DNA from: Patescibacteria group bacterium | GTDB taxonomy: Bacteria > Patescibacteriota > Minisyncoccia > JAHIHE01 > JAGLIN01 | Reading direction: 5' to 3' | Assembly: GCA_041670805.1 (NCBI GenBank) | Contig: JBAXYM010000002.1 | Span: 1,309 to 65,308, forward strand | DNA: 64,000 nt | In this document: positions 23,963-38,058 of the stretch, piece after piece | How the letters are laid out: each line of letters opens with the position of its first letter | Position numbering within the stretch: position 1 is the first letter of the stretch | Made by a program: the position numbers and the translations under genes | Notes under the pieces: generated by a model | The model's database searches: none | Seen by the model: the letters and a program-made list of their open reading frames with translations, nothing else | What the model was told of the DNA's origin: nothing

Positions 23963-26188
23963 TTAATCATCAAACCTAATCACTTCTCCCGGCTTGATTT
24001 CTTTCGCTTCTTTTTTGGTTTCGCCTGCGGGAATGTTCTGCGTATCAATAATAGGGCTTTCCCTCTTCGGAATCGCAACCGGTTTTGCGATCCGGGGTTT
24101 CGGCAAAATAATTTCTTGTTTTTTGACAGCGGCAACGAAAACCTCCTCAATTTCGTTTATCCGCGTCACCTCGGGAGCAGACGGCTCGGAGACAATGGGA
24201 ATGGCAGGCGTTATTTTTTCATCCGTCCGCATTTCTTGAGGAACGGCATTTGCAGTTTCGCGACTTGCAATTTGTTTCCTCCGCCCCTCCGCCGCCAGCC
24301 GCTTCCGCTCGTAAAATTCAATCATTTTTTGCGGGTCGTAAGAAAATTTTTTCTGTTCGATTTTGGGCGCTACAGCCTCCGCACTTTCCTTCTTCAAAAC
24401 ATCAATGGGCTGTGTTTTCTTCTCCGCAACGGTTTCTCCGCTCTCCATCCGGACAGGTTCCTCTTTTGGCATCGCCCCTGGCACGACTTCCAGTGTCTGA
24501 GGATGAATCGAAGCAGGCGGAACAGAAGGAGCGACAACGGGCGCACTCTCCATTATCGGCGTAACAATTGAAGACTGGGATGGTGGCACTTCCGTTTCTT
24601 TCTGCAAAACCGGAGCCGCCGCCTCAACGGGCGCGGCAGGCTGCTGAACGATTTGAGGTTGTGAAAACTTCGCGCTCTCCGTCGGCTGCTGGCGGGCTTT
24701 CAAAAGACAATCCTTGCAGTATGTCGCACGCGCCGGATCCGGCTGAAAAGGAACTTTTATCGCCGTACCGCAAGTCGCGCAAACGGCATCCCACATCTCG
24801 CGATTATCCGTTTTTTCTTTTTTCTCTCCCGGCGCGGAAGGCTCGTTTCGCAATTCACCGCTCTCCTCGTCTTTGACATATCCCGACCAGCGCGCGACTT
24901 TGTCCTCCACTTCCTCTCTTTTCTTGGTGTAGCGCTCGCGCGATACTCGAATAATTTTTTCCGGATCGCTCTTTTCCGTAATTTCAATCGGCGGCAATGA
25001 AGTGGCGCTGAAAGCGTCGCCGGACACGCCATCGATCATCAGCTTCAAGTACATATCATATTTAGCCAAATTGACCAAATCATTCATCATAAAAATCGGC
25101 TCGAATTCCTTTTCCAAAAATTCCGCATCCGTGGCTCCCACCCGAAAACTGACAATGGTTCCGACATTGCCGAAGATGGCATCACTCACCGTCTCTTCCA
25201 ATTGACCGATATATTGGTGCGCCACGATCAGATCCAGACGATACTTGCGCGCCTCGGACAAAATTCCCGCGAAAGATTCCGTGGCGAAATTTTGGAACTC
25301 ATCGACGTAGAGATAAAAATCCTGACGCTCCTCTTCCGGCGTATCCACGCGCCCCATCGCCGCCAACTGGATCTTGGTGATAATCATCGCCCCCAGCAAG
25401 GCGCTGTAATCTTCCCCGATTCTTCCCTTGGAAAGATTAACGATAAGAATTTTGCGATTGTCCATTATATCGCGCATATCGATGGAAGAATGCGGCTGCG
25501 AAACGATGTTACGCACCAAGGAGCTCGACAAAAACTGCCCGACCTTGTTCTGAATCGGAGAAATCGCTTCAACCGTAAATTGTTTGGAATACTTCGTAAA
25601 TTCGTCCGTCCAGAAAGTCTTCACCACAGGATCGGAAATCTTGCTCACCACTTTCTTGCGATAATCGTCATCGATAAGCAGGCGCGGCACTCCCAAAAGA
25701 GTGCTGTCCGGATATTCCAAGAGCGCCAAAATCGTATTTCGCAAAAGATACTCCAGCCGAGGACCCCAAGAATCCGCCCAAATTTTCTTGAAAACTCCGA
25801 TGAGCCCCGAGGCGATGAGATGGCGATATTTTGGATCAACGTGCTCCATCACATTAAAAGCAATCGGATAATCTATATCCGCCGGATTGAAATATATGAC
25901 GTCGTTGACTCGGGACGGAGGAATAAAATTCAGAACCTCCTCCGCCAGATCTCCGTGCGGATCAACTACCGCCAGCCCCTGTCCGCTTTGAATATCGGAG
26001 ATGATCATATTCTCCAAAAGGGTGGTCTTGCCCATACCGGTCTTTCCAATTACATACATATGCCGGCGACGATCCTCCCGCTTGATGCCGAAGACATGTT
26101 CCTGTCCGCGAAAATTGGTCTTGCCGAAATAGGTAATATCGTTCTTTTCCATAATTTTGTTTATTTGAATATATCCCTCCATTGTCAC
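23963..26188 (-). CDS. VirD4/TraD/TrwB-family type IV coupling-protein-like ATPase, with no N-terminal TM, plus a C-terminal Zn-ribbon and a Pro/Ala-rich tail.
   Basis: Walker A in T4CP context (YVIGKTGMGKTTLL...GLAVVDPHGDL), Walker B (LYVDEFQNF) and the conserved VAHQYIGQL motif. The C-terminus has CATCG...CKDC and a low-complexity region. Confidence 0.55.
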   Translation of the reverse strand: MTMEGYIQINKIMEKNDITYFGKTNFRGQEHVFGIKREDRRRHMYVIGKTGMGKTTLLENMIISDIQSGQGLAVVDPHGDLAEEVLNFIPPSRVNDVIYFNPADIDYPIAFNVMEHVDPKYRHLIASGLIGVFKKIWADSWGPRLEYLLRNTILALLEYPDSTLLGVPRLLIDDDYRKKVVSKISDPVVKTFWTDEFTKYSKQFTVEAISPIQNKVGQFLSSSLVRNIVSQPHSSIDMRDIMDNRKILIVNLSKGRIGEDYSALLGAMIITKIQLAAMGRVDTPEEERQDFYLYVDEFQNFATESFAGILSEARKYRLDLIVAHQYIGQLEETVSDAIFGNVGTIVSFRVGATDAEFLEKEFEPIFMMNDLVNLAKYDMYLKLMIDGVSGDAFSATSLPPIEITEKSDPEKIIRVSRERYTKKREEVEDKVARWSGYVKDEESGELRNEPSAPGEKKEKTDNREMWDAVCATCGTAIKVPFQPDPARATYCKDCLLKARQQPTESAKFSQPQIVQQPAAPVEAAAPVLQKETEVPPSQSSIVTPIMESAPVVAPSVPPASIHPQTLEVVPGAMPKEEPVRMESGETVAEKKTQPIDVLKKESAEAVAPKIEQKKFSYDPQKMIEFYERKRLAAEGRRKQIASRETANAVPQEMRTDEKITPAIPIVSEPSAPEVTRINEIEEVFVAAVKKQEIILPKPRIAKPVAIPKRESPIIDTQNIPAGETKKEAKEIKPGEVIRFDD

Positions 26189-26263: not shown

Positions 26264-26821
26264 CTAGCTTCCATCAGCGGTTGCATCCCGATAACAGCCG
26301 GGGCAAACCCATGCATTATTACCACCACCACATCCGGAACCATAAGGACTGCCGAGAGTGGTCGCAGACGAAGCTCCATTGGATCCGACACAATAAAATT
26401 TTTGCGCCCCCGGCAACCAAACCAATATGGTAAATTTGGGGTAAGGCGCGCCCGCCGTATATGCAAAAACACGATATCCACTTGAAGATCCTATATTATT
26501 TACGATGCTTTTACATGCAACTCTAACACTTGCAGGATTAGAGGTGGAGCCGAATTGTGCATCACAAACCTGATTAGCAGTCCCCGCCCAATCAAAGAAA
26601 TAATATGCTGAATAATCCTGCGATGCGGTAGCGTCTATCTGCGCCGCTTTCATTATGGAATCTGCCGACTGCATTATCGCCGCATCCTTCGCTTTCAACC
26701 GCGCCCCATTTAGCGAAGTCATCGCAATAGTAGACAACACGCCGATAATGGAAATCACCACAAGAAGCTCAATGAGAGTAAAACCGTTTCTTGAATACCT
26801 TAAATATTGTTTTCTCTTCAT
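26264..26821 (-). CDS. Type IV pilin / pseudopilin (prepilin-type N-terminal cleavage/methylation domain).
   Basis: N-terminus RNGFTLIELLVVISIIGVL (class III signal peptide with the conserved Glu at +5). Confidence 0.8.
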   Translation of the reverse strand: MKRKQYLRYSRNGFTLIELLVVISIIGVLSTIAMTSLNGARLKAKDAAIMQSADSIMKAAQIDATASQDYSAYYFFDWAGTANQVCDAQFGSTSNPASVRVACKSIVNNIGSSSGYRVFAYTAGAPYPKFTILVWLPGAQKFYCVGSNGASSATTLGSPYGSGCGGGNNAWVCPGCYRDATADGS

Positions 26822-26896: not shown

Positions 26897-28165
26897 TCAT
26901 ATTGGCAAAGTTGCCGGCGGCTTGCCTTTTTTGGCTTCCACTTTCGGCACCAGCGAGCCTCTGACTTCTTTGGTTGGAAAGTGATAGAGAGTCGCCAACT
27001 CGTCCGAAGTCATTATATAGCTTTTGAAATCCAAAGTTCTGTCCTTGTATTTCCGCAGTATCGCTCTTTTTTTTACTTTCTTTCTCGCGTCGGGAAAGAA
27101 ATAATAGGCGCTGGTTTTCGTTCTTGCGTCCGGTCGGATGCTATTCATCAGATCACTCCCAAACTGCGTAAAATACGCAAAGAACTGCGCGTTGGCTTTT
27201 GCTTTATTAAAAGCGCTCCTTTTTGCGGCATAAATATAGCGGATGTCGGTTTCAAACCCCGGTCTTTTCAGTTTTTCATCAATGGCATCAATAACCGCCC
27301 TTTCTCCCGAAGACAAGTGTAGCATCATACTCGGCAGATCATTGCTCTTTTTCTCCGCCGGCGCAGTTTCGCCCGTACTGAAAAAACCGGAGATCCCTTT
27401 CACCGCGCTGCTTAGCATCTCCGACCAAAATCCCGGTTTGGGTTCCGGCACCGCTCTTCCCGCTAATTTCAAAACTGTGTTTTGGGCGCTTTTCTTCCAC
27501 TCCTCGCTGGTAGGTCGCACCAGAATCTGAATCCAAAACTGTTCTCCCGGCCCCAGAGCGTTAACACCCTCCACGATGACACTCAGAGGATCAATAAACT
27601 CTCCCGAGGCGATATCTTCGAACTCCTTGTATGTCCGAATAGGATACGCATTGTCTTTGCTCAGTTTCATATCCGTCCCCCAAATATCATAGTCTTCATT
27701 GGGAATGTCGTCGGGAATGCTGGTGACGTATTCTTCCGCCTCTTGGATTTCCGCATCGGGATATTGCGCGTAAATATGAGATTTGACGAAAGGCAGATCT
27801 CCATCCATCACGCGGATATAAAAATGCACGTCACCCTCAAAGCTGACGATTTCAAAACTGAACCAAGACTCAACCACACCGTCGATATAGGTATCATAAA
27901 GAGTATCTATCGCGGCATCAAGACCGCTCGACAGCGCCGTAAAAAATTCCTCCATCGTCTTTGGTCTGATTTCCACTCCGGAAGGAACTTTGATTTCCAG
28001 AAGATGCCATTTTATATTTCTGATGTTTTTTTCCTGCACATAAACCGTCCAAAAATAATGGAACATCGGCCACATTACAAAAAAAGAAAAAAACCACCAA
28101 TATTCAAGGTAAACGCGGAGCGCCCCCTTGATGGATTCGTAGATGATAACGGAAAAACTTATCAT
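26897..28165 (-). CDS. Hypothetical membrane-anchored protein of unknown function, in the pilin/T4CP operon.
   Basis: 422 aa with an N-terminal hydrophobic region (WWFFSFFVMWPMFHYFWTV) and no recognisable catalytic motif. Short intergenic gaps to its neighbours (19 and 75 nt). Confidence 0.5.
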   Translation of the reverse strand: MISFSVIIYESIKGALRVYLEYWWFFSFFVMWPMFHYFWTVYVQEKNIRNIKWHLLEIKVPSGVEIRPKTMEEFFTALSSGLDAAIDTLYDTYIDGVVESWFSFEIVSFEGDVHFYIRVMDGDLPFVKSHIYAQYPDAEIQEAEEYVTSIPDDIPNEDYDIWGTDMKLSKDNAYPIRTYKEFEDIASGEFIDPLSVIVEGVNALGPGEQFWIQILVRPTSEEWKKSAQNTVLKLAGRAVPEPKPGFWSEMLSSAVKGISGFFSTGETAPAEKKSNDLPSMMLHLSSGERAVIDAIDEKLKRPGFETDIRYIYAAKRSAFNKAKANAQFFAYFTQFGSDLMNSIRPDARTKTSAYYFFPDARKKVKKRAILRKYKDRTLDFKSYIMTSDELATLYHFPTKEVRGSLVPKVEAKKGKPPATLPI

Positions 28166-28184: not shown

Positions 28185-29327
28185 TTATTTCAGGCGATAG
28201 ACTTTGTTGGGGAGTTTCTCAAAATTTTTCTTGTTCTGCAAGTTGAGAATGATCGTGTTTCTCTTGACCTGCCTTCTTCCCATAACTTCTTTGACGATTT
28301 CCTCCTGATCCATTGTCCCGCCCTTTTCTCTCATTACTTCCATTATAACATCAAGTACCACTCCAGGTCTATATCCCCATTCTTTGAGAGCGTAAATTCC
28401 GCGTCCGATCAGCACAAACCGTCCGTCCTTGATAACCTCATTGTGAACGGTCTGATTGTTGGTCTGCTTCTTGCTTGTCCAAAAGCTGTTGATTCTTTCG
28501 GTAATATCCGTAAAATGCAACGGCTTGTCTTCCCGCTTGAGCGCGAGATATGCCTTGTCCTTGACGCTCTTGGGATTGATGTGCGGCCATTTGTGATGCC
28601 CCCACTGTCCGAGAATATTTTCCAGCACCAATTTGTTTACATCCAAATAAGAACGGATCGACTCGTGAGAAAATTCATTGACCCCTTCCTTCTTCACGCT
28701 CTTTTGCGCCAGCACCACCAGATCGTCAAAGCTCAGACTCTTCTTGGTTTCCCGAAAATAATCTTCCAAAATCTCCAAAGTCTTTTCAAAAAGTTCCACG
28801 CCGCTTACTTCGTAGAAATAGAATTTTTTGTGGCTCGGGCTCTCTTTGGATTTTTTGATCGAATCGTCCAAATCCAAAAGCAAAACCACAATCTGCTTGT
28901 TCAGATCCTTGTCACCTTCCGCAAAAAGATTTTTAACTAATTTGTCTTCCCCCACCAATCCACCGCTTTCCTCGATGATTTTCTTCACATAATCAAAGAC
29001 TCTCTCCAAATCATATTTCCCGACGCTCGCCTTGAGCTTGGCAACCGATTCCGTTTCAATCTGTCTCACTCTCTCGCGCGTAATGTCGTAGTCCTTGCCG
29101 ATACTGTCCAGCGTCTGCGCGCCCTCTCCGTTCAGATTGTATCTTTTAATGATTATATTGCGTTGTCTGTCGTTCAATATTTTGAGCATTTCAAAAACCA
29201 GTTTGTTAAGGTCGACGTTTAAATCGCCTCTTTCTTCTAATTTCTTGTTCATATTATTTGTATAAGTTAACCCAATCTGCAAAAAATAGCACTGCCATAA
29301 TATATCACGATTAAAAAGGCGTGTCAA
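28185..29327 (-). CDS. DNA-binding protein combining a sigma-70 region-4-like HTH with a C-terminal HARE-HTH domain.
   Basis: LNDRQRNIIIKRYNLNGEGAQTLDSIGKDYDITRERVRQIETESVAKLK resembles sigma-70 region 4. The C-terminal DGRFVLIGRGIYALKEWGY resembles the HARE-HTH of the RNAP delta subunit (DGRF..L....WGLR.WY). The likely start is MNKKLEE at about 29250. Confidence 0.5.
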   Translation of the reverse strand: MTRLFNRDILWQCYFLQIGLTYTNNMNKKLEERGDLNVDLNKLVFEMLKILNDRQRNIIIKRYNLNGEGAQTLDSIGKDYDITRERVRQIETESVAKLKASVGKYDLERVFDYVKKIIEESGGLVGEDKLVKNLFAEGDKDLNKQIVVLLLDLDDSIKKSKESPSHKKFYFYEVSGVELFEKTLEILEDYFRETKKSLSFDDLVVLAQKSVKKEGVNEFSHESIRSYLDVNKLVLENILGQWGHHKWPHINPKSVKDKAYLALKREDKPLHFTDITERINSFWTSKKQTNNQTVHNEVIKDGRFVLIGRGIYALKEWGYRPGVVLDVIMEVMREKGGTMDQEEIVKEVMGRRQVKRNTIILNLQNKKNFEKLPNKVYRLK

Positions 29328-29361
29328 GATCTTGGGCTGAACATTTGTTATTATTTGTATC

Positions 29362-29500
29362 TGTCATTCCGGAATTTCGTTTCGTCGAAATATCCGGAAT
29401 CCCCGTGCCATACAAGACCAATCCTCGACTTGTTGTCTCTCGCCACCGACTTTGTCATCCCGAAAGGCGTACTCGCTTGATAAATCCGAGAAATATGCAA
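29362..29500. repeat. Family-B hairpin fragment plus a family-C-like TIR fragment, upstream of the pilin/T4CP operon.
   Basis: TGTCATTCCGGAATTTCGTTTCGTCGAAATATCCGGAATCCCCG, then TTTGTCATCCCGAAAGGCGTACTCGCTTGATAAATCCGAGAAATATGC. Confidence 0.55.
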
Positions 29501-29578
29501 GACTCTGTCAAGCTGGATCTTGAACCCCCCGTATCAAGCTGCCTAAACACCATTCCCGATATAAACCTCCATTTTTTT

Positions 29579-29810
29579 GCGGGAGCAGGTTTAAACCTGC
29601 TCCCTATGATTTTATTTCAAGACCGGCGATGTTTGTTTCTAACTGCCCATGCTGCTTTGTTACGATTAAATCAATAATAAAACATTCCGAAGCTTAAAAC
29701 CCTATGGAGCGGGTAAATACCCGCTCCCGCAAATACGGACACAAAAAAACAGCGGACCCGAAAATCCGCTATTTTTATCCTATACGCGGGAGCAGGTTTG
29801 AACCTGCTCC
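29579..29810. repeat. Cluster of three short family-G perfect-palindrome hairpins (GCGGGAGCAGGTTTAAACCTGCTCCC and variants).
   Basis: 29579-29604 GCGGGAGCAGGTTTAAACCTGCTCCC; 29706-29727 GGAGCGGGTAAATACCCGCTCC; 29786-29810 GCGGGAGCAGGTTTGAACCTGCTCC. Spacings of about 127 and 80 nt. Confidence 0.8.
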
Positions 29811-29897
29811 TTAATAAACACCTTCAAACTTTCACTTGAAGGCTTTTCCAAAACCGCAAAGGTTTGTGGGCTTGAAAAAAGTTAAGAAAAGAGTATT

Positions 29898-30284
29898 TTA
29901 CTCTTTTCTTTTTGGTTTTATAAGCATTTGGTCTATTCCCCAAAGATAGACCATCATTACCGATGCGCCAAGGACGGAGACAACTTTCCCGAGAAAAGGC
30001 ATCGACATGACCGCAACGATTTGTATTACCGTTGCTAATGTGAAAATCAAAGTCACATTCCACGCTACCTCTTTTCTGATGTTAGCTCTTTTTTCTTTTT
30101 CGAAGAGAAGCATGTCCATCAGGCAAAGAACGCTTTCAAGAAGTGCTGTCAGAATTATCGAATTTAGGATAATCCTGTTCACGATAATAATTTCTACCTC
30201 AAGCATGTAACCGGCCATATATAACAAGGCCGCAACACAAAAAACAAAAGCTACAAATTTTGGGATTCTTTTTATCATTGTCAT
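29898..30284 (-). CDS. Hypothetical small membrane protein (3-4 TM).
   Basis: 128 aa, hydrophobic throughout. Confidence 0.4.
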   Translation of the reverse strand: MTMIKRIPKFVAFVFCVAALLYMAGYMLEVEIIIVNRIILNSIILTALLESVLCLMDMLLFEKEKRANIRKEVAWNVTLIFTLATVIQIVAVMSMPFLGKVVSVLGASVMMVYLWGIDQMLIKPKRKE

Positions 30285-30845: not shown

Positions 30846-31589
30846 ATGGAAATTTCCATCGCGGCAGAAACAGTCACTCATATATTGGGAATACCGGTTA
30901 CGAATTCCCTGCTGGCTTCGCTGCTCACCACGGTAGTGCTGGTAACCATAAGCTATTTTGCCACCAAAAATCTAAAGGAAGTCCCGAAAGGCATTCAAAA
31001 TATCATAGAGTACGCAGTCGAAAGTCTTTACAATATGATTCAGGACGTGACAAGAGACAAGAAAAAGACTTACAAGTTCTTTCCTTTCGTAGCCACGATT
31101 TTTTTGTTTGTGATGACTTCCAACTGGATGGGGCTTTTGCCGGGATTTTCCACGATAGGCGTCAAAGAAGAAACGGCGGGCGGACACGAGATTGTGGTCG
31201 GATTTTTCCGATCCGCCAACAGCGATCTCAATTCCACCATAGCGCTGGCGGTCGTTTCGGTGCTGTCAATCCAGATTATGGGAATTGCGATGTTAGGCTT
31301 TGCGAAATATGGCAAAAAGTTTATCAACTTGAGCTCCCCTATCGCTTTTTTCATCGGCATTCTGGAAATTATCAGCGAGGTTGCCAAGATGATTTCTTTT
31401 TCGTTCAGGCTTTTCGGAAATATATTCGCCGGCGAGGTTTTGCTTACCGTTATAATGACTATCGCGCCTTTCATTGCGCCGGTGCCGTTTTTCGCGCTGG
31501 AACTCTTCGTGGGAGCGATTCAGGCTTTGGTGTTCGCGATGCTCCTGCTCGTCTTTATGAATACGGCGACGATGTCGGAAGAGCACTAA
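30846..31589 (+). CDS. atpB: F0F1 ATP synthase subunit a.
   Basis: 247 aa polytopic protein with the conserved Arg in the penultimate helix (SFSFRLFGNIFAGE). Confidence 0.9.
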   Translation: MEISIAAETVTHILGIPVTNSLLASLLTTVVLVTISYFATKNLKEVPKGIQNIIEYAVESLYNMIQDVTRDKKKTYKFFPFVATIFLFVMTSNWMGLLPGFSTIGVKEETAGGHEIVVGFFRSANSDLNSTIALAVVSVLSIQIMGIAMLGFAKYGKKFINLSSPIAFFIGILEIISEVAKMISFSFRLFGNIFAGEVLLTVIMTIAPFIAPVPFFALELFVGAIQALVFAMLLLVFMNTATMSEEH

Positions 31590-31650
31590 ATCAAAAAACT
31601 AATAGATTTATATATAGTTTAAGTTAATTAATTTTATCAAAAGAAAAAAT

Positions 31651-31884
31651 ATGGAACTAACGAAAGAATCACTGCAGATCATTTTCGCGTCAGCAACAAT
31701 CGTCATCGGTGCTATCGCTCCGGCAATGGCTATTGGAAAAATCGGTACCGCCGGATTGGAAGCAATCGGACGCAACCCGGAAGCGGCCGGAGATGTAAAA
31801 GGAACTATGATCTTGGCAGTAGCTTTTGCGGAAGCAATCGCTATCTATGCTTTGGTGGTAGCTCTTATCATCAAGTTTGTATAA
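31651..31884 (+). CDS. atpE: F0F1 ATP synthase subunit c.
   Basis: 77-aa hairpin proteolipid with GAIAPAMAIGKIGTAG and the conserved carboxylate helix (AFAEAIAIYALVVALII). Confidence 0.9.
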   Translation: MELTKESLQIIFASATIVIGAIAPAMAIGKIGTAGLEAIGRNPEAAGDVKGTMILAVAFAEAIAIYALVVALIIKFV

Positions 31885-31984
31885 TAAACCGGGGCTTGTC
31901 CCCCTTTTATGTTAGAACATATATTTATGTTCTAAATAAGCGACAAACCGTTATTAATGAGCGAAGCGGAAATCTAATTGATGT

Positions 31985-32095
31985 CGTCCCGGAATTTGCG
32001 CAGCAAATATCCGGGATCCCCGACATGTAAGATAAAACTTTATTGGCTTAGTAGCGGGATTCCGGATATTTCGCAGTAGCGAAATTCCGGAATGA
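31985..32095. repeat. Family-B hairpin pair inside the atpE-atpF spacer.
   Basis: TGTCGTCCCGGAATTTGCGCAGCAAATATCCGGGATCCCC...GGGATTCCGGATATTTCGCAGTAGCGAAATTCCGGAATGACA. Confidence 0.7.
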
Positions 32096-32152
32096 CACCT
32101 TTTTTGTCGCTGATTCGGAATATAAAAATTAATAATTTAAAAGATAAAGACT

Positions 32153-32653
32153 ATGGCATCGGAGATATTTAGCAAGCTGGGAATCAACGGGGCTCTTTTG
32201 ATTTCGCAAATTGTCAATTTCGTTCTTCTTATAATTCTTCTCAAAAAATACGCCTACGGTCCGGTTTTGAAGATACTCAACGACCGCGCGGAGAAAATCG
32301 AGAGGAGCCTCAAGGAAGCGAAAAAAATCGAAGAGGAGCTCAAGAACACCGAAGAAACCAAAGTGGCGGAGATAAGAAAAGCTAAGGAAGAAGCGGCGGA
32401 AATCGTCAAGAAGTCCTACGACGTTGCGCAGGCAAATGCCGAGAAAGCCATCGACGAAACTCGCAAGAAGACGCAGGAAATCGTTGCCAAGGCGAAGGAA
32501 GAAATTCAAGACGAAAAAGAAAAATCCGTAAAAGAAGCCGAGAAAGAAATCGCCGACTTGGCCATCCAAATTGCGGAGAAAATCATCCGCAAAAACTTGG
32601 ACGGCGCCGTCGAGAAAAAGCTGGCGGAAGAGACTTTGTCCAAGATAAAATAG
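32153..32653 (+). CDS. atpF: F0F1 ATP synthase subunit b.
   Basis: N-terminal TM followed by a long charged helix (EKIERSLKEAKKIEEEL...). Confidence 0.8.
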   Translation: MASEIFSKLGINGALLISQIVNFVLLIILLKKYAYGPVLKILNDRAEKIERSLKEAKKIEEELKNTEETKVAEIRKAKEEAAEIVKKSYDVAQANAEKAIDETRKKTQEIVAKAKEEIQDEKEKSVKEAEKEIADLAIQIAEKIIRKNLDGAVEKKLAEETLSKIK

Positions 32654-32659
32654 AAACTT

Positions 32660-33046
32660 ATGAAGATAACACCCAAACAATACGCCATCAGCCTCTTTGA
32701 GATTACCAGAGGCGCGAGCAAAGAAGAATCATCCGAGCTGATAAAAAGTTTCGTAGACCTCCTGCGCTTCAATAACAATCTTTCCATGGAGAAAAAAATT
32801 ATTGAAGAGTATCAAACTTACTGCCGCAAGCAAAAAGGAATTTCCAAGGTGAAAATCAGCAGCGGGGAAAAGCTGAGCCCGGAAATCGTGAGCGACATCG
32901 TTAACCGCTTCGCCGGACAGGTGGAACTCGAAGAGGAAGTGGATCCGGATCTCATCGGCGGCATCGCGGTCGTAATCAACGACGACACGCTGATTGATGG
33001 CAGCATCAGGAAAAAGCTGGCGGATATGAAGCAGACCATAAGTTAG
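32660..33046 (+). CDS. atpH: F0F1 ATP synthase subunit delta (OSCP), short form.
   Basis: C-terminal [22 protein letters not shown] matches the delta C-terminal domain. Only 128 aa. Confidence 0.65.
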
Positions 33047-33075
33047 ATTTAAATATTTATAAAATAAAAGAATAT

Positions 33076-34608
33076 ATGAACAGCTATATCATAGAAAATC
33101 TCAAGAAGCAGATCGCCGGAGCCAAGACGGAATCCCAAGTGGAAAAAGTCGGCAAGGTCATCAAAATCGGAGACGGGGTCGCCACTCTGAACGGCATCAG
33201 CGAAGTTATGAGCGGCGAGCTTTTGGAATTTTCAAACGGCGTTGCCGGCGTGGCACTGAACTTGGAAGAAGACGGGGTCGGTGTTATGATTATGGGAGAT
33301 TACAAGAAAATCAAGGAAGGCGACGTGGCGAAAAGCACCGGCAGGATTTTGGAAGTACCGGTGGGAGAGGCTATGGTAGGACGGGTAGTGAACGCTCTCG
33401 GGGAACCGATAGACGGGCTGGGAGAGATCAAGACGGATAAATTTTATCCGGTGGAAAAGATTGCGCCGCGCGTTATCACCAGAAAATCCGTAGACACTCC
33501 GCTTCAAACCGGAATCAAGGCCATCGATTCGATGATACCGATCGGGAAAGGACAGCGTGAACTCATTATCGGTGACCGCCAGATCGGAAAAACCGCCATC
33601 GCTATCGACACGATTATCAATCAAAAGGGCAAGGACGTGACCTGTATCTATGTCGCTATCGGACAGAAAGAATCCAAGATTGCCAAAATCGTCACCAAGC
33701 TCAAGGAGGCGGGCGCGATGGAACATACCATCATCGTGCTGGCAGGCGCTTCCGACTCGGCGGCTATGTCATACATCGCTCCTTACGCCGGATGCGCGAT
33801 GGGAGAATATTTTATGGACAAAGGCAAGGACGCACTTATCATTTACGACGATCTCACCAAACACGCGCAAGCTTACCGCCAGATATCGCTGATTCTCAGA
33901 AGACCGCCGGGACGCGAAGCTTACCCGGGAGATGTTTTCTATCTTCACTCAAGACTCTTGGAGCGCGCCGCCAAGCTGGATGAAAAATACGGAGGCGGAT
34001 CATTGACCGCGCTGCCTATCATCGAGACGCAGGCGGGAGACGTGAGTGCCTACATTCCGACCAACGTAATTTCCATTACGGACGGGCAAATCTTTTTGGA
34101 AACCGACCTCTTCTATCAAGGCATCAGACCGGCTATCAACCCGGGCATCTCGGTGTCTCGCGTCGGTTCCGCCGCCCAGACCAAAGCGATGAAGAAAGTC
34201 GCAGGCAAACTGCGATTGGAGTTGGCGCAATTCCGTGAAATGGCCGCTTTCGCACAATTTTCCTCCGATCTCGATAAAGAAACCAAAAGCAAGATCGACA
34301 GAGGAATGCGACTTACGGAAGTGCTCAAGCAAGACCAATACTCCCCTCTCTCCATTTCCCAGCAAGTAACAATAGTCTTCGCAACCATCAACGGTTTCTT
34401 GAACGAAGTAAAAGTGGAAGACGTGCGAAAATTCGAGGCGGAACTCCTGACATACGTCGGCGAGCAAAAGGCTGAAATTTTTGAAAATATCGAGAAAGAA
34501 CAAACCATTTCCGAAGACACCGACAAGATGCTGCGCGAAACTATCGAGGATTTCAAAAATTCTTTCTTGGACCAAAATGCACCGGAGAAACCGGAAGAGA
34601 AAAAGTAA
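33076..34608 (+). CDS. atpA: F0F1 ATP synthase subunit alpha.
   Basis: [14 protein letters not shown]-loop, 510 aa. Confidence 0.95.
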
Positions 34609-34611
34609 ATC

Positions 34612-34652
34612 TTTGTCATCCTGAGCGGAGCGGAGCGCAGTCGAAGGATCCC
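34612..34652. repeat. Family-E short element in the atpA-atpG spacer.
   Basis: TTTGTCATCCTGAGCGGAGCGGAGCGCAGTCGAAGGATCCC. Confidence 0.7.
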
Positions 34653-34777
34653 TTCACTATCGCCCAAACCCATAATGGCATCGTAGTTCTACCGAGTAAT
34701 AGAAACTTCTCCTAACGTCGGACAAAAAAGTCTGCGTATTAAAACCATAAACAGACCCCAAGCAATAAGTTAATTCT

Positions 34778-35680
34778 ATGCAATCGACCCGAATTATAAA
34801 AAGACAAATCCAGTCTACCAAAAACATCGCCAAGATCACCAAAGCGATGCAGATGGTTTCGGCTGCCAAAATGAGGAAAAGCCAAACGGCGGCGCTTATC
34901 GCCCGACCTTATGCGGAAGCGGCGCTCAAACTTCTGGGCAACGTCAGCAATTCCTTGGAATCGCAAAAGGACTATCCCCTCACCCATAAGCGCGAAGTCA
35001 AAAAGCTTTGCCTCATGGTCATCACTTCCGACAAAGGGTTGTGCGGAGGACTTAACAGCTCGGTGCTCAAAGAAGCGAATAGAATCATTGCGGAAAATCA
35101 AGATAAAGAAATCTGCCTGGTCACTATCGGCAAGAAAGCGGAAAAATTCTTCCGCGGCAAGCAGAACATCGTCGCCATTTTTGACGGCATCGGCGATACA
35201 GTGGAATTGATGGAAACTTTGCCCATCTCGCGCCTTCTGATGAAAGATTTTTTGGCGGAAGATTACGACAAGGTCATTGCCGTCTACACCAACTTTGTTT
35301 CTACACTCAAGCAGACCGTGGAAACAAGGGCATTGCTCCCTATCAGCCAAAAGAGCATCAAGAAAACGATTGATGAACTGGGAGAAGACGAAATCGGACG
35401 TACGAAGAAAATGAAAGACGCGACGGAATATGTTTTCGAGCCGTCGCCGGAAGAAGTCCTCAAAAAACTTCTGCCGAATCTGGTAGAGACGCAAGTTTTC
35501 CACATAGTTTTGGAATCCAATGCCTCCGAGCACAGCGCGCGTATGGTGGCAATGAAAAACTCCACCGACAGCGCGCGGGATTTGCTGGAAGATCTCCAAC
35601 TTTATTACAACAGCGCGAGACAAGGGAAGATTACGCAAGAAATGACAGAAATTGCAGCAGGAGTTGCGGCGCAAGAATAA
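34778..35680 (+). CDS. atpG: F0F1 ATP synthase subunit gamma.
   Basis: N-terminal IKRQIQSTKNIAKITKAMQMVSAAKMRK and a C-terminal conserved helix. Confidence 0.9.
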   Translation: MQSTRIIKRQIQSTKNIAKITKAMQMVSAAKMRKSQTAALIARPYAEAALKLLGNVSNSLESQKDYPLTHKREVKKLCLMVITSDKGLCGGLNSSVLKEANRIIAENQDKEICLVTIGKKAEKFFRGKQNIVAIFDGIGDTVELMETLPISRLLMKDFLAEDYDKVIAVYTNFVSTLKQTVETRALLPISQKSIKKTIDELGEDEIGRTKKMKDATEYVFEPSPEEVLKKLLPNLVETQVFHIVLESNASEHSARMVAMKNSTDSARDLLEDLQLYYNSARQGKITQEMTEIAAGVAAQE

Positions 35681-35756
35681 AATTAGGATATTTGTCTTTC
35701 TGTGGGGTTCCTCTTCCTCATAATAGGGGAATCCGATCAGGGAAATAAACCGCTAT

Positions 35757-35887
35757 TGTCATCTCGAAGGAGTACTCGACTGAGAGATCTGGGAATTGCA
35801 CGCAAACTGGAAAGGTTCAATATGAAGACTTAAACTTTTCGCCATTCCGTACATTCCCCAGATTTCTCAATCGGAGTACCTCATTTC
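35757..35887. mobile_element. Family-C MITE inside the atpG-atpD spacer.
   Basis: Same TIRs as 9184-9321 (TGTCATCTCGAAGGAGTACTCGACTGAGAGATCTGGGAA ... CCAGATTTCTCAATCGGAGTACCTCATTTCGAAATGACA). Confidence 0.8.
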
Positions 35888-36187
35888 GAAATGACAAATA
35901 GAAATTTGATTTCAATAAAGCACGTTAAAAATTTAGAGATTGAGTTTTGGAATAAAAAAGGAGGTGATAAAAATCACAGGCGAGCACATAAAAGAAACAA
36001 GGGAAGATTTAAAATTCAGGAGATTCTATTATAAAGACCTAGCTCTCCACAACGGAAAAACTGTTTTGGAAAAGCTAGAATATTTAATCAGATATTTTTT
36101 AAGTTTTTTCTAAAAAATCTTCCCCAACTTTTTTTCCAAAACCCAATTTCTAAATTAAAATTTTACACATACATTAAACACTTATAG

Positions 36188-37573
<1,386 letters not shown>

Positions 37574-37635
37574 TTTGGAACCTGCCTCTGTCGTTTGCGA
37601 GGAACAATGACGAATATAGAGTTTAAAATAAAATT

Positions 37636-38058
37636 ATGAAAATAGATTTACAAGTAGTCACTCCGGAAAAAATCGCCTTTGAGGGAGAAATCGATCAAAT
37701 CTCGCTTCCGACCAAGAATGGACAGATTACCATACTGCCCAAACATATTTCTTTGGTGAGCACCGTTAAGAGCGGCGAGCTCGTTATCAAAAACGGCGAA
37801 GAAGAAATCTTGATGGCGGTTTATGGCGGCTTTGTGGAAGTACGAAAAAATCAAGTACGGGTTATGACCGATGTCGCGGAAAGGGTGGATGAGATTGACG
37901 AAGAAAAAGCACAGAGGGCTCGCGACGAGGCGCAAAGAAAACTCCAAGAAAAAGACCGGATGGACGATGTTGACTTCGCCGACGCGGTAAGGCAACTGGA
38001 AAAATCTTTGGCTCTGCTGAAAGCCGTCAAGAACATAAAGCGAAGAGGGATAAAATAA
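37636..38058 (+). CDS. atpC: F0F1 ATP synthase subunit epsilon.
   Basis: 140 aa with an N-terminal beta-sandwich and a C-terminal helical hairpin. It follows atpD in the operon. Confidence 0.85.
   Translation: MKIDLQVVTPEKIAFEGEIDQISLPTKNGQITILPKHISLVSTVKSGELVIKNGEEEILMAVYGGFVEVRKNQVRVMTDVAERVDEIDEEKAQRARDEAQRKLQEKDRMDDVDFADAVRQLEKSLALLKAVKNIKRRGIK

Follow-up and report, generated by a model that had tools for sequence, protein, structure and literature searches.

A sigma-70 region 4 domain joined to four winged helices in a conserved DNA-binding protein of the Patescibacteria, encoded upstream of a DUF8128 and T4CP-like ATPase gene pair

Region 4 of the group 1 and group 2 sigma-70 factors (RpoD, SigA and RpoS) is a DNA-reading domain that in these proteins is accompanied by regions 1.2, 2 and 3, while the delta subunit of Firmicute RNA polymerase (RNAP), RpoE (TIGR04567), carries an N-terminal HARE-HTH, a helix-turn-helix (HTH) domain, and an acidic tail. 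The HARE-HTH has reportedly been linked to sigma-like modules in proteins with features of RNAP alpha and sigma (Aravind and Iyer, in 2012). A different comparison is offered by TrwA (R388), TraM (F) and PcfF (pCF10), plasmid-borne DNA-binding accessory proteins with ribbon–helix–helix (RHH) folds, which work together with a relaxase at oriT and link DNA to the coupling proteins of conjugation. The gene described here lies on the minus strand of a 64,000-nt stretch of DNA from a Patescibacteria group bacterium (assembly GCA_041670805.1, contig JBAXYM010000002.1, positions 1,309 to 65,308; hereafter the window), combines a sigma-70 region 4 domain (sigma4) with a HARE-HTH, and heads an operon that also encodes a membrane protein of family DUF8128 and an ATPase resembling type IV coupling proteins (T4CPs).

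A relative with published genetics is SEML1_0294 of Southlakia epibionticum ML1, a 349-aa protein named ‘RpoS’ by PROKKA, with PF04545 at residues 27–72 and PF05066 at 225–283, which was parsed by DPAM into a tri-helical domain and three winged domains and flagged as a core, Patescibacteria-enriched family (PMC10633639, Tables S1 and S2). Transposon sequencing scored it as essential at each of three time points (24 insertions in the input, 1–2 after selection); the adjacent motor gene directly downstream, SEML1_0293 (921 aa, T4CP domain at residues 402–719), was called non-essential, yet its reads dropped from 5817 to 2940 and then 1372 (PMC10633639). The same genome has a canonical RpoD (regions 1.2, 2, 3 and 4) and a canonical FtsK, both essential, and its only sigma annotations are RpoD and SEML1_0294 (PMC10633639). 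SEML1_0294 is left undiscussed in the text of that study (PMC10633639), and the paper that defines the CPR-enriched families (CPR, Candidate Phyla Radiation) likewise does not discuss the family. It should be noted that the orthology of SEML1_0294 with the window protein was judged by architecture and synteny, not by sequence; saccharibacterial members of the family are about 35–39% identical to the window protein. SEML1_0294 belongs to the same length class, has the same pair of Pfam domains and occupies the same place directly upstream of a DUF8128/T4CP gene, whereas in S. epibionticum DUF8128 and ATPase are fused into the one 921-aa protein and other genes surround the locus (topA and dprA on the upstream side, GNAT and Cas9 on the downstream side).

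The identity of the window protein is secure: it is no sigma factor but belongs to a CPR-wide family of DNA-binding proteins built of sigma4 and four winged helices. An initial annotation made from the DNA letters had proposed a fusion of a sigma-70 region-4-type HTH at the N-terminus with a HARE-HTH towards the C-terminus, and both domains were recovered by Pfam above their gathering cutoffs: Sigma70_r4 (PF04545) at aa 48–99 of the 380-aa open reading frame (ORF) (E=8e-13, 48.1 bits versus 24.1) and HARE-HTH (PF05066) at aa 254–317 (E=2.1e-9, 38.1 bits versus 25.9; up to 59.9 bits in another family member, P0112). The latter segment also scores above the cutoff of TIGR04567, the model for the N-terminal domain of RNAP delta (47.1 bits versus 42). 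The 380-aa ORF itself (28185..29327, minus strand) is present when read from TTG 29327, the extent originally assigned to the gene, but this TTG opens a −35 hexamer, TTGACA, and the start is therefore placed at ATG 29252. The corrected length of 355 aa agrees with homologues of 349–358 aa, which begin at the equivalent Met. In the AlphaFold2 model (40-sequence alignment; mean predicted local distance difference test score, pLDDT, 89.2; predicted template modelling score 0.75) sigma4 leads into a tandem array of four winged helices with the HARE-HTH as number three, so that the layout first described as two domains is predicted to comprise five folded modules. With residues numbered from the corrected start, the features of the gene are as follows.

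28185..29252, minus strand: coding sequence of the sigma4 plus four-winged-helix protein, corrected start ATG 29252, 355 aa plus stop; homologues 349–358 aa with an equivalent Met.
29025..29210, minus strand: sigma-70 region 4 (4.1 and 4.2), aa 15–76, recognition helix ITRERVRQIE (Pfam PF04545, PDB profile, Foldseek).
28812..29006, minus strand: winged helix 1 (WH1), aa 83–147, predicted by AlphaFold2; weakly conserved (0.36) and acidic, family median net charge −3.
28593..28808, minus strand: winged helix 2 (WH2), aa 149–220, predicted by AlphaFold2; weakly conserved (0.33); Foldseek matches to tandem winged-helix arrays.
28383..28565, minus strand: winged helix 3, the HARE-HTH, aa 230–290 (Pfam PF05066, TIGR04567); conservation 0.66, charge +4.
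28188..28358, minus strand: winged helix 4 (WH4), aa 299–355, predicted by AlphaFold2; conserved (0.57) and basic, net charge +5.

The sigma4 head is a complete region 4 domain of the primary-sigma type. A profile of 40 family members matched solved region 4 structures of SigA, RpoD and RpoS with E=3e-19 to 1e-13, corresponding in E. coli sigma70 to residues 537–608 with a constant offset of 525, and the predicted domain superposes on SigA region 4 with a root mean square deviation of 1–2 Å over about 60 residues at about 37% identity (Foldseek). The alignment with sigma70 is gapless across regions 4.1 and 4.2, and the window helix TRERVRQIE comes very close to TRERIRQIE of sigma70. The residues that make the −35 hexamer and backbone contacts in sigma70, established by genetics and the Taq sigmaA–DNA structure, are R554, R562, T572, L573, R584, E585, R586, R588 and Q589. 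All nine equivalents (R29, R37, T47, L48, R59, E60, R61, R63 and Q64) are invariant among the 40 members. In an alignment of 85 sequences every one of them but R29 reaches at least 95% conservation, a level shared by G52, T58 and I65. No conservation is seen at the activator-contact positions of sigma70, K593 and R596, where the window protein has E68 and A71, or in the C-terminal flap-contact helix. The simplest inference is that the domain reads TTGACA-type DNA.

A protein with such a region 4 might be a true, if divergent, alternative sigma factor, which is what the PROKKA name ‘RpoS’ implies, and the strong region 4 match speaks for it. Its sigma4 is not joined to regions 1.2, 2 or 3, however: neither Pfam nor NCBIfam detected Sigma70_r2 (PF04542) or region 3 in the window protein at a threshold as loose as E<=1, the NCBIfam sigma models RpoS, RpoD, RpoH and MzaA align solely through their C-terminal region 4, and the domain sits N-terminal to a winged-helix array, with only 14 residues before it in the AlphaFold2 model and the remaining 280 residues forming beta-containing winged helices, not helical sigma2 or sigma3. 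The alternative-sigma reading is thus effectively refuted and keeps a negligible probability, as the initial annotation had anticipated in stating that the protein lacks regions 2 and 3 and is not a conventional sigma factor; neither a full divergent sigma factor (regions 2 and 4) nor a lack of HARE-HTH similarity emerged from the profile and structure searches. A split sigma factor, in which the protein would lend region 4 to an RpoD without it, was rejected because the S. epibionticum RpoD has regions 1.2, 2, 3 and 4.

The other modules fall into two kinds. In the 85-sequence alignment sigma4, the HARE-HTH and WH4 are conserved (mean top-residue frequency 0.55, 0.66 and 0.57) and basic (median net charge +4, +4 and +5), and WH1 and WH2 are variable (0.36 and 0.33) and acidic to neutral. 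The HARE-HTH (motif QTVHNEVIKDGRFVLIGRGIYALKEWGY) is the best conserved of the five, with the predicted topology H-S-H-H-S-S at aa 230–290, and its recognition-helix residues H270, N271 and E272 are invariant in the family alignments across a very deep radiation. Outside sigma4, Foldseek returned tandem winged-helix arrays (UFL1/DDRGK1, Dcc1 and Rpc5). Compared with delta, the HARE-HTH is internal rather than N-terminal and the protein is twice as long and occurs in CPR rather than Firmicutes; a delta-like acidic disordered C-terminal tail is absent, the C-terminus being a folded winged helix (pLDDT 90–95, net charge +5). Nor did Pfam detect an alpha C-terminal domain or helix-hairpin-helix domain in the window protein, in which respect it would differ from the proteins of 2012 as these are said to be built.

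These domains invite the suggestion that the protein is an RNAP-associated general factor, by analogy a CPR-specific essential accessory subunit with sigma4 on the beta-flap and/or the −35 box and the HARE-HTH on beta-prime as in Firmicute delta. Both modules are homologous to RNAP-binding modules, with TIGR04567 passed and the best PDB sequence match of the HARE domain being S. aureus delta in an RNAP complex (8x6g_E, E=0.079), the ortholog is an essential member of a core family in S. epibionticum, and the invariance of H270, N271 and E272 suggests an equally conserved partner. Set against this, the S. epibionticum RpoD has its own region 4, so that the flap site would normally be occupied, strict conservation of the DNA-contact residues is unneeded for docking on the flap, the protein has no acidic tail, the feature by which delta function is defined, and there is no obvious reason for an RNAP subunit to stay linked to a T4CP-like operon. 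On balance we regard such a role as quite unlikely.

The architecture had been called unusual, which holds relative to model organisms only, as the window gene joins a large, conserved, known but uncharacterized family whose architecture is already in public databases under inconsistent names. The best 120 database matches are all of 331–392 aa at 36–86% identity, with PF04545 on all and PF05066 on most, and every organism-named one among them is from Patescibacteria. An exhaustive profile search gave 936 clusters at 50% identity (E<=1e-30), nearly all aligned end to end, and there are at least 600 matches among GTDB species representatives, those listed including Parcubacteria, Saccharibacteria, Moranbacteria, Nealsonbacteria, Yanofskybacteria, Kerfeldbacteria, Doudnabacteria, Peregrinibacteria and others. 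NCBI, UniProt, PROKKA and JGI annotate the family automatically and inconsistently, for example as ‘sigma factor-like helix-turn-helix DNA-binding protein’ (NCBI) or, for some members, ‘RNAP delta subunit’ (JGI). The only long outlier (P0271, 659 aa) is a SecF::sigma4/HARE fusion, which was rejected as an informative domain fusion and is most likely a SecF read-through or gene-calling artefact, since secF lies directly upstream in many loci. One 10-kb contig (JBLHGD010000034.1) is labelled ‘Candidatus Azotimanducaceae’, which we take to be a gammaproteobacterial family; on it the family protein is followed by DUF8128, as in CPR loci, and it is probably a mis-binned CPR contig.

The initial annotation placed the gene at the head of a pilin/T4CP operon. 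It does head an operon with a T4CP-like ATPase, but the pilin lies outside the conserved unit, in which the partners are DUF8128 and the ATPase. The genes downstream in the window are as follows.

26897..28165, minus strand: DUF8128 (PF26449) membrane protein, Pfam assignment from homologous loci, supported by AlphaFold2 and Foldseek.
26264..26821, minus strand: type IV pilin-like gene (N_methyl motif; Pfam, NCBIfam), between the DUF8128 and ATPase genes.
23963..26188, minus strand: T4CP/TraD/TrwB-like P-loop ATPase with TrwB_AAD_bind, T4SS-DNA_transf, TraG-D_C and zf_Tbcl_2 domains (Pfam; NCBIfam), start codon approximate.

The DUF8128 gene begins 19 nt after the stop codon of the sigma4/HARE gene. 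In its AlphaFold2 model (pLDDT 74) two long helices form a hairpin at the N-terminus, a putative transmembrane anchor, and its only significant PDB matches in Foldseek were 13 TrwK/VirB4 chains (E=2e-5 to 4e-4, with a modest TM-score of 0.33–0.37), on the strength of which the model suggests a fold like the VirB4 N-terminal domain (VirB4-N). For the ATPase, the nearest PDB sequences are the coupling proteins DotL and TrwB, and no transmembrane helices were predicted. The window copy has 741 aa compared with about 610–700 aa in relatives, with a CxxC-x17-CxxC zinc finger at aa 463–499 and then about 240 aa of low-complexity tail, in which P, A, E, K and Q abound, and CPR copies are 54–83% identical to it, which is unusually high. 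In one saccharibacterial locus (L045, 9130–11856) DUF8128 and ATPase form a single 908-aa ORF, in L043, L051, L056 and L057 the tblastn matches to the two share a reading frame, suggesting from sequence the same fusion, and PHROG 5156 is a single profile covering both parts. DUF8128 and the ATPase thus look like one membrane-anchored motor of VirB4/T4CP type. The idea that this ATPase stands in for FtsK was rejected, since S. epibionticum has an FtsK of canonical type that is itself essential. Thousands of T4CP homologues unlinked to virB4 or relaxases have been reported from Patescibacteria, for which the authors suggest exaptation; relaxases were rare, and no sigma-like or HTH partner of these homologues is mentioned (PMC12102498).

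As to the pilin, relatives at 82%, 75% and 69% identity have no such gene between DUF8128 and the ATPase, nor has any of the other loci, and it is therefore a recent lineage-specific insertion outside the conserved cassette; for the same reason it was rejected as a functional partner. In L086 only a 60-aa ORF is found at the pilin spot, and in L088 three pilin genes lie further downstream.

With the pilin set aside, the order in the window equals that of the cassette elsewhere. Of 81 informative loci, 76 have the DUF8128 gene next in the same orientation, and in 56 of 72 loci the T4CP-like ATPase with the CxxC zinc finger comes after it, a linkage that spans Parcubacteria, Saccharibacteria, Kerfeldbacteria, Doudnabacteria and others. 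In 45 of 84 loci the gene is preceded by SecD/SecF in the same orientation, and because the other recurrent neighbours are also housekeeping genes (secA, pgk, mnmA, yceG and leuS) this is a core-chromosome cassette and no mobile element. No relaxase or integrase was present among the neighbours in the loci examined, and T4SS (type IV secretion system) genes were likewise lacking nearby. In three loci (L052, L059 and L081) the sigma4/HARE gene occurs without detectable DUF8128 or ATPase in 3–8 kb of downstream sequence; these are labelled Peregrinibacteria, Peribacteria and ‘Patescibacteria group’ respectively, and in L052 the downstream sequence includes a stretch of about 2.3 kb devoid of long ORFs.

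Two further explanations turn on this context. The first is that the locus is an anti-phage defence or mobile-element module, in which the HARE-HTH would act as a sensor of modified DNA beside a HerA/mad8-like ATPase. HARE-HTH domains are common in restriction, BREX and Dnd systems according to two published accounts (PMC12839542, PMC10853773), the ATPase matches PADLOC mad8 at E=1e-16, sigma4 matches MzaA and there is the match to PHROG 5156. However, the PADLOC and PHROG matches are at domain level only, and the fixed core-chromosome site among secA/secDF, pgk, mnmA, yceG and leuS, the near-universal presence in CPR with an ATPase this strongly conserved, a single family relative in 2.9 million viral contigs, the essentiality of the ortholog and the lack of a relaxase or integrase nearby all run counter to it, so that a defence or mobile function is effectively excluded and must be considered very improbable.

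The second is that the protein is the DNA-recruiting subunit or adaptor of the motor, which would bind DNA and hand it over to, or activate, the membrane-anchored DUF8128/T4CP-like hexameric ATPase, the three genes making up one DNA-translocation machine by analogy with TrwA, TraM and PcfF. The extreme conservation of gene order across CPR (the 76 of 81 and 56 of 72 loci above) points in this direction, as does the existence of DUF8128 and ATPase as one protein in Saccharibacteria, in SEML1_0293 and in PHROG 5156, which implies that the downstream genes are a unit. The T4CP-like character of the ATPase and the VirB4-N-like fold of DUF8128 are also in keeping with it, the orphan Patescibacteria T4CP homologues have been suggested to be exapted (PMC12102498), and the non-basic WH1 and WH2 could be protein-binding modules. 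Against this stands the finding that the ortholog is essential and the motor gene is not, so that an adaptor role cannot be the sole function, as well as the retention of the gene in some lineages without adjacent motor genes. The likeness to the accessory proteins is moreover one of functional analogy only, resting on a small to medium-sized DNA-binding protein being encoded beside a T4CP-family ATPase: there is no homology or fold similarity to RHH-type proteins, the folds here being sigma4 and winged helix, and the locus is a chromosomal core locus with no relaxase or T4SS genes nearby. We therefore consider the adaptor role unlikely, if still worth serious attention.

The gene has a strong, near-consensus promoter of its own, which is given here with its position.

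29299..29327, minus strand: sigma70-type operon promoter, −35 TTGACA at 29327–29322, 17-nt spacer, extended −10 TG-n-TATATT ending at 29299.

A promoter scan of the window gene gave 11 matches out of 12 plus the TG, and the sequence was also read directly. The same TTGACA-17-TG-n-TATATT arrangement is kept base for base in five loci, down to 53% protein identity, and an own promoter scoring at least 10/12 was found upstream of the gene in 70 of 88 loci compared with 7 of 267 random windows. Among the 70 strong promoters of these CPR loci, TTGACA is the −35 hexamer in 44; since CPR promoters in these loci use TTGACA, a cognate site for the sigma4 head exists, including that in its own promoter. 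Upstream of the window promoter the intergenic region is unusually long (29328–29897, about 570 nt) and holds several terminator-like hairpins, for example at 29581–29604 and 29820–29843; it has no Rfam match. A second TTGACA lies about 190 nt upstream of the −35 of the window promoter.

From these observations we infer a DNA specificity, a regulatory action and a set of targets, and tentatively favour, as somewhat less than an even chance, the explanation that the protein is a stand-alone regulator that binds TTGACA boxes and acts on the motor operon, and is no sigma factor. The sigma4 head would bind TTGACA-type, −35-like DNA exactly as sigma70 does, while the basic HARE–WH4 pair would contact further DNA. 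The protein would then occupy promoters, its own first, and regulate the motor operon, with a wider reach being probable in genomes with one sigma factor; either this wider reach or the toxicity of a de-repressed operon might account for the essentiality of the ortholog. In favour of it are the invariant DNA-contact residues and the place of the gene as the first of its operon, behind a perfect −35. Retention of the gene without nearby motor genes in L052, L059 and L081 fits a role beyond the motor. An extra TTGAC in the same orientation was found near the −35 in 12 of 50 family promoters compared with 3 of 44 promoters of other genes (Fisher p=0.027, on small numbers and phylogenetically non-independent loci), a hint of extra sites near the own promoter that is only suggestive.

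Several points weigh against this regulator. A 6-bp TTGACA site offers low specificity, gene order kept throughout a superphylum is what one would sooner expect of physically interacting subunits than of a regulator and its target, the HARE-HTH of RNAP delta binds RNAP rather than DNA, and the essentiality could stem from other causes. An anchored logo of 54 promoters showed only a normal −35 and extended −10, with no further operator that might serve the winged helices.

Of the surroundings of the operon it may be added that a predicted membrane protein of 128 aa with no Pfam match (29898–30284, minus strand) lies between the cassette and a divergent, complete F-type ATP synthase operon (30846–38058, plus strand; atpB, E, F, H, A, G, D and C). 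Close relatives have a 102–134-aa ORF at the position of the small membrane protein, and the divergent arrangement of ATP synthase and cassette is common to the close relatives L086–L089. The window contains no second sigma4 gene (rpoD) in its 64 kb, nor any tRNA gene or Rfam match at the gathering threshold; over positions 1–64000 GC skew is mostly negative and most genes are on the minus strand.

The two roles first proposed for the protein, a specialized regulator or a DNA-binding component, are also the two leading hypotheses now. In the searchable literature no description was found of the three-gene cassette, of a VirB4-N-like DUF8128, of the invariant −35-reading head or of the connection with a gene that is essential in a CPR organism amenable to genetics. 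The family is currently mislabelled as RpoS, RNAP delta subunit or hypothetical, which matters for annotation. The cassette, running from the sigma4/winged-helix protein through a VirB4-N-like anchor to the ATPase, gives a context for the thousands of ‘orphan’ T4CP homologues of Patescibacteria. The genomes of these organisms are tiny, with apparently one sigma factor and hardly any regulators. A core protein that is enriched in CPR, proved essential in the sole species tested and bears a perfect head for reading −35 boxes therefore ranks as a strong candidate for a key part in their transcription or DNA handling, and the genetic tractability of S. epibionticum makes the hypotheses directly testable. 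In its boldest form, which we think rather doubtful, the protein would be an essential and hitherto unrecognized part, peculiar to CPR, of the basal machinery for gene expression or DNA handling: a free-standing reader of −35 boxes that is either an accessory subunit of RNAP, through sigma4-like and delta-like contacts, or a physical coupler of promoter-like DNA to a membrane-anchored motor of VirB4-N/T4CP type. If true, this would be a new class of DNA–protein machine, universal in a superphylum that holds a large share of bacterial diversity.

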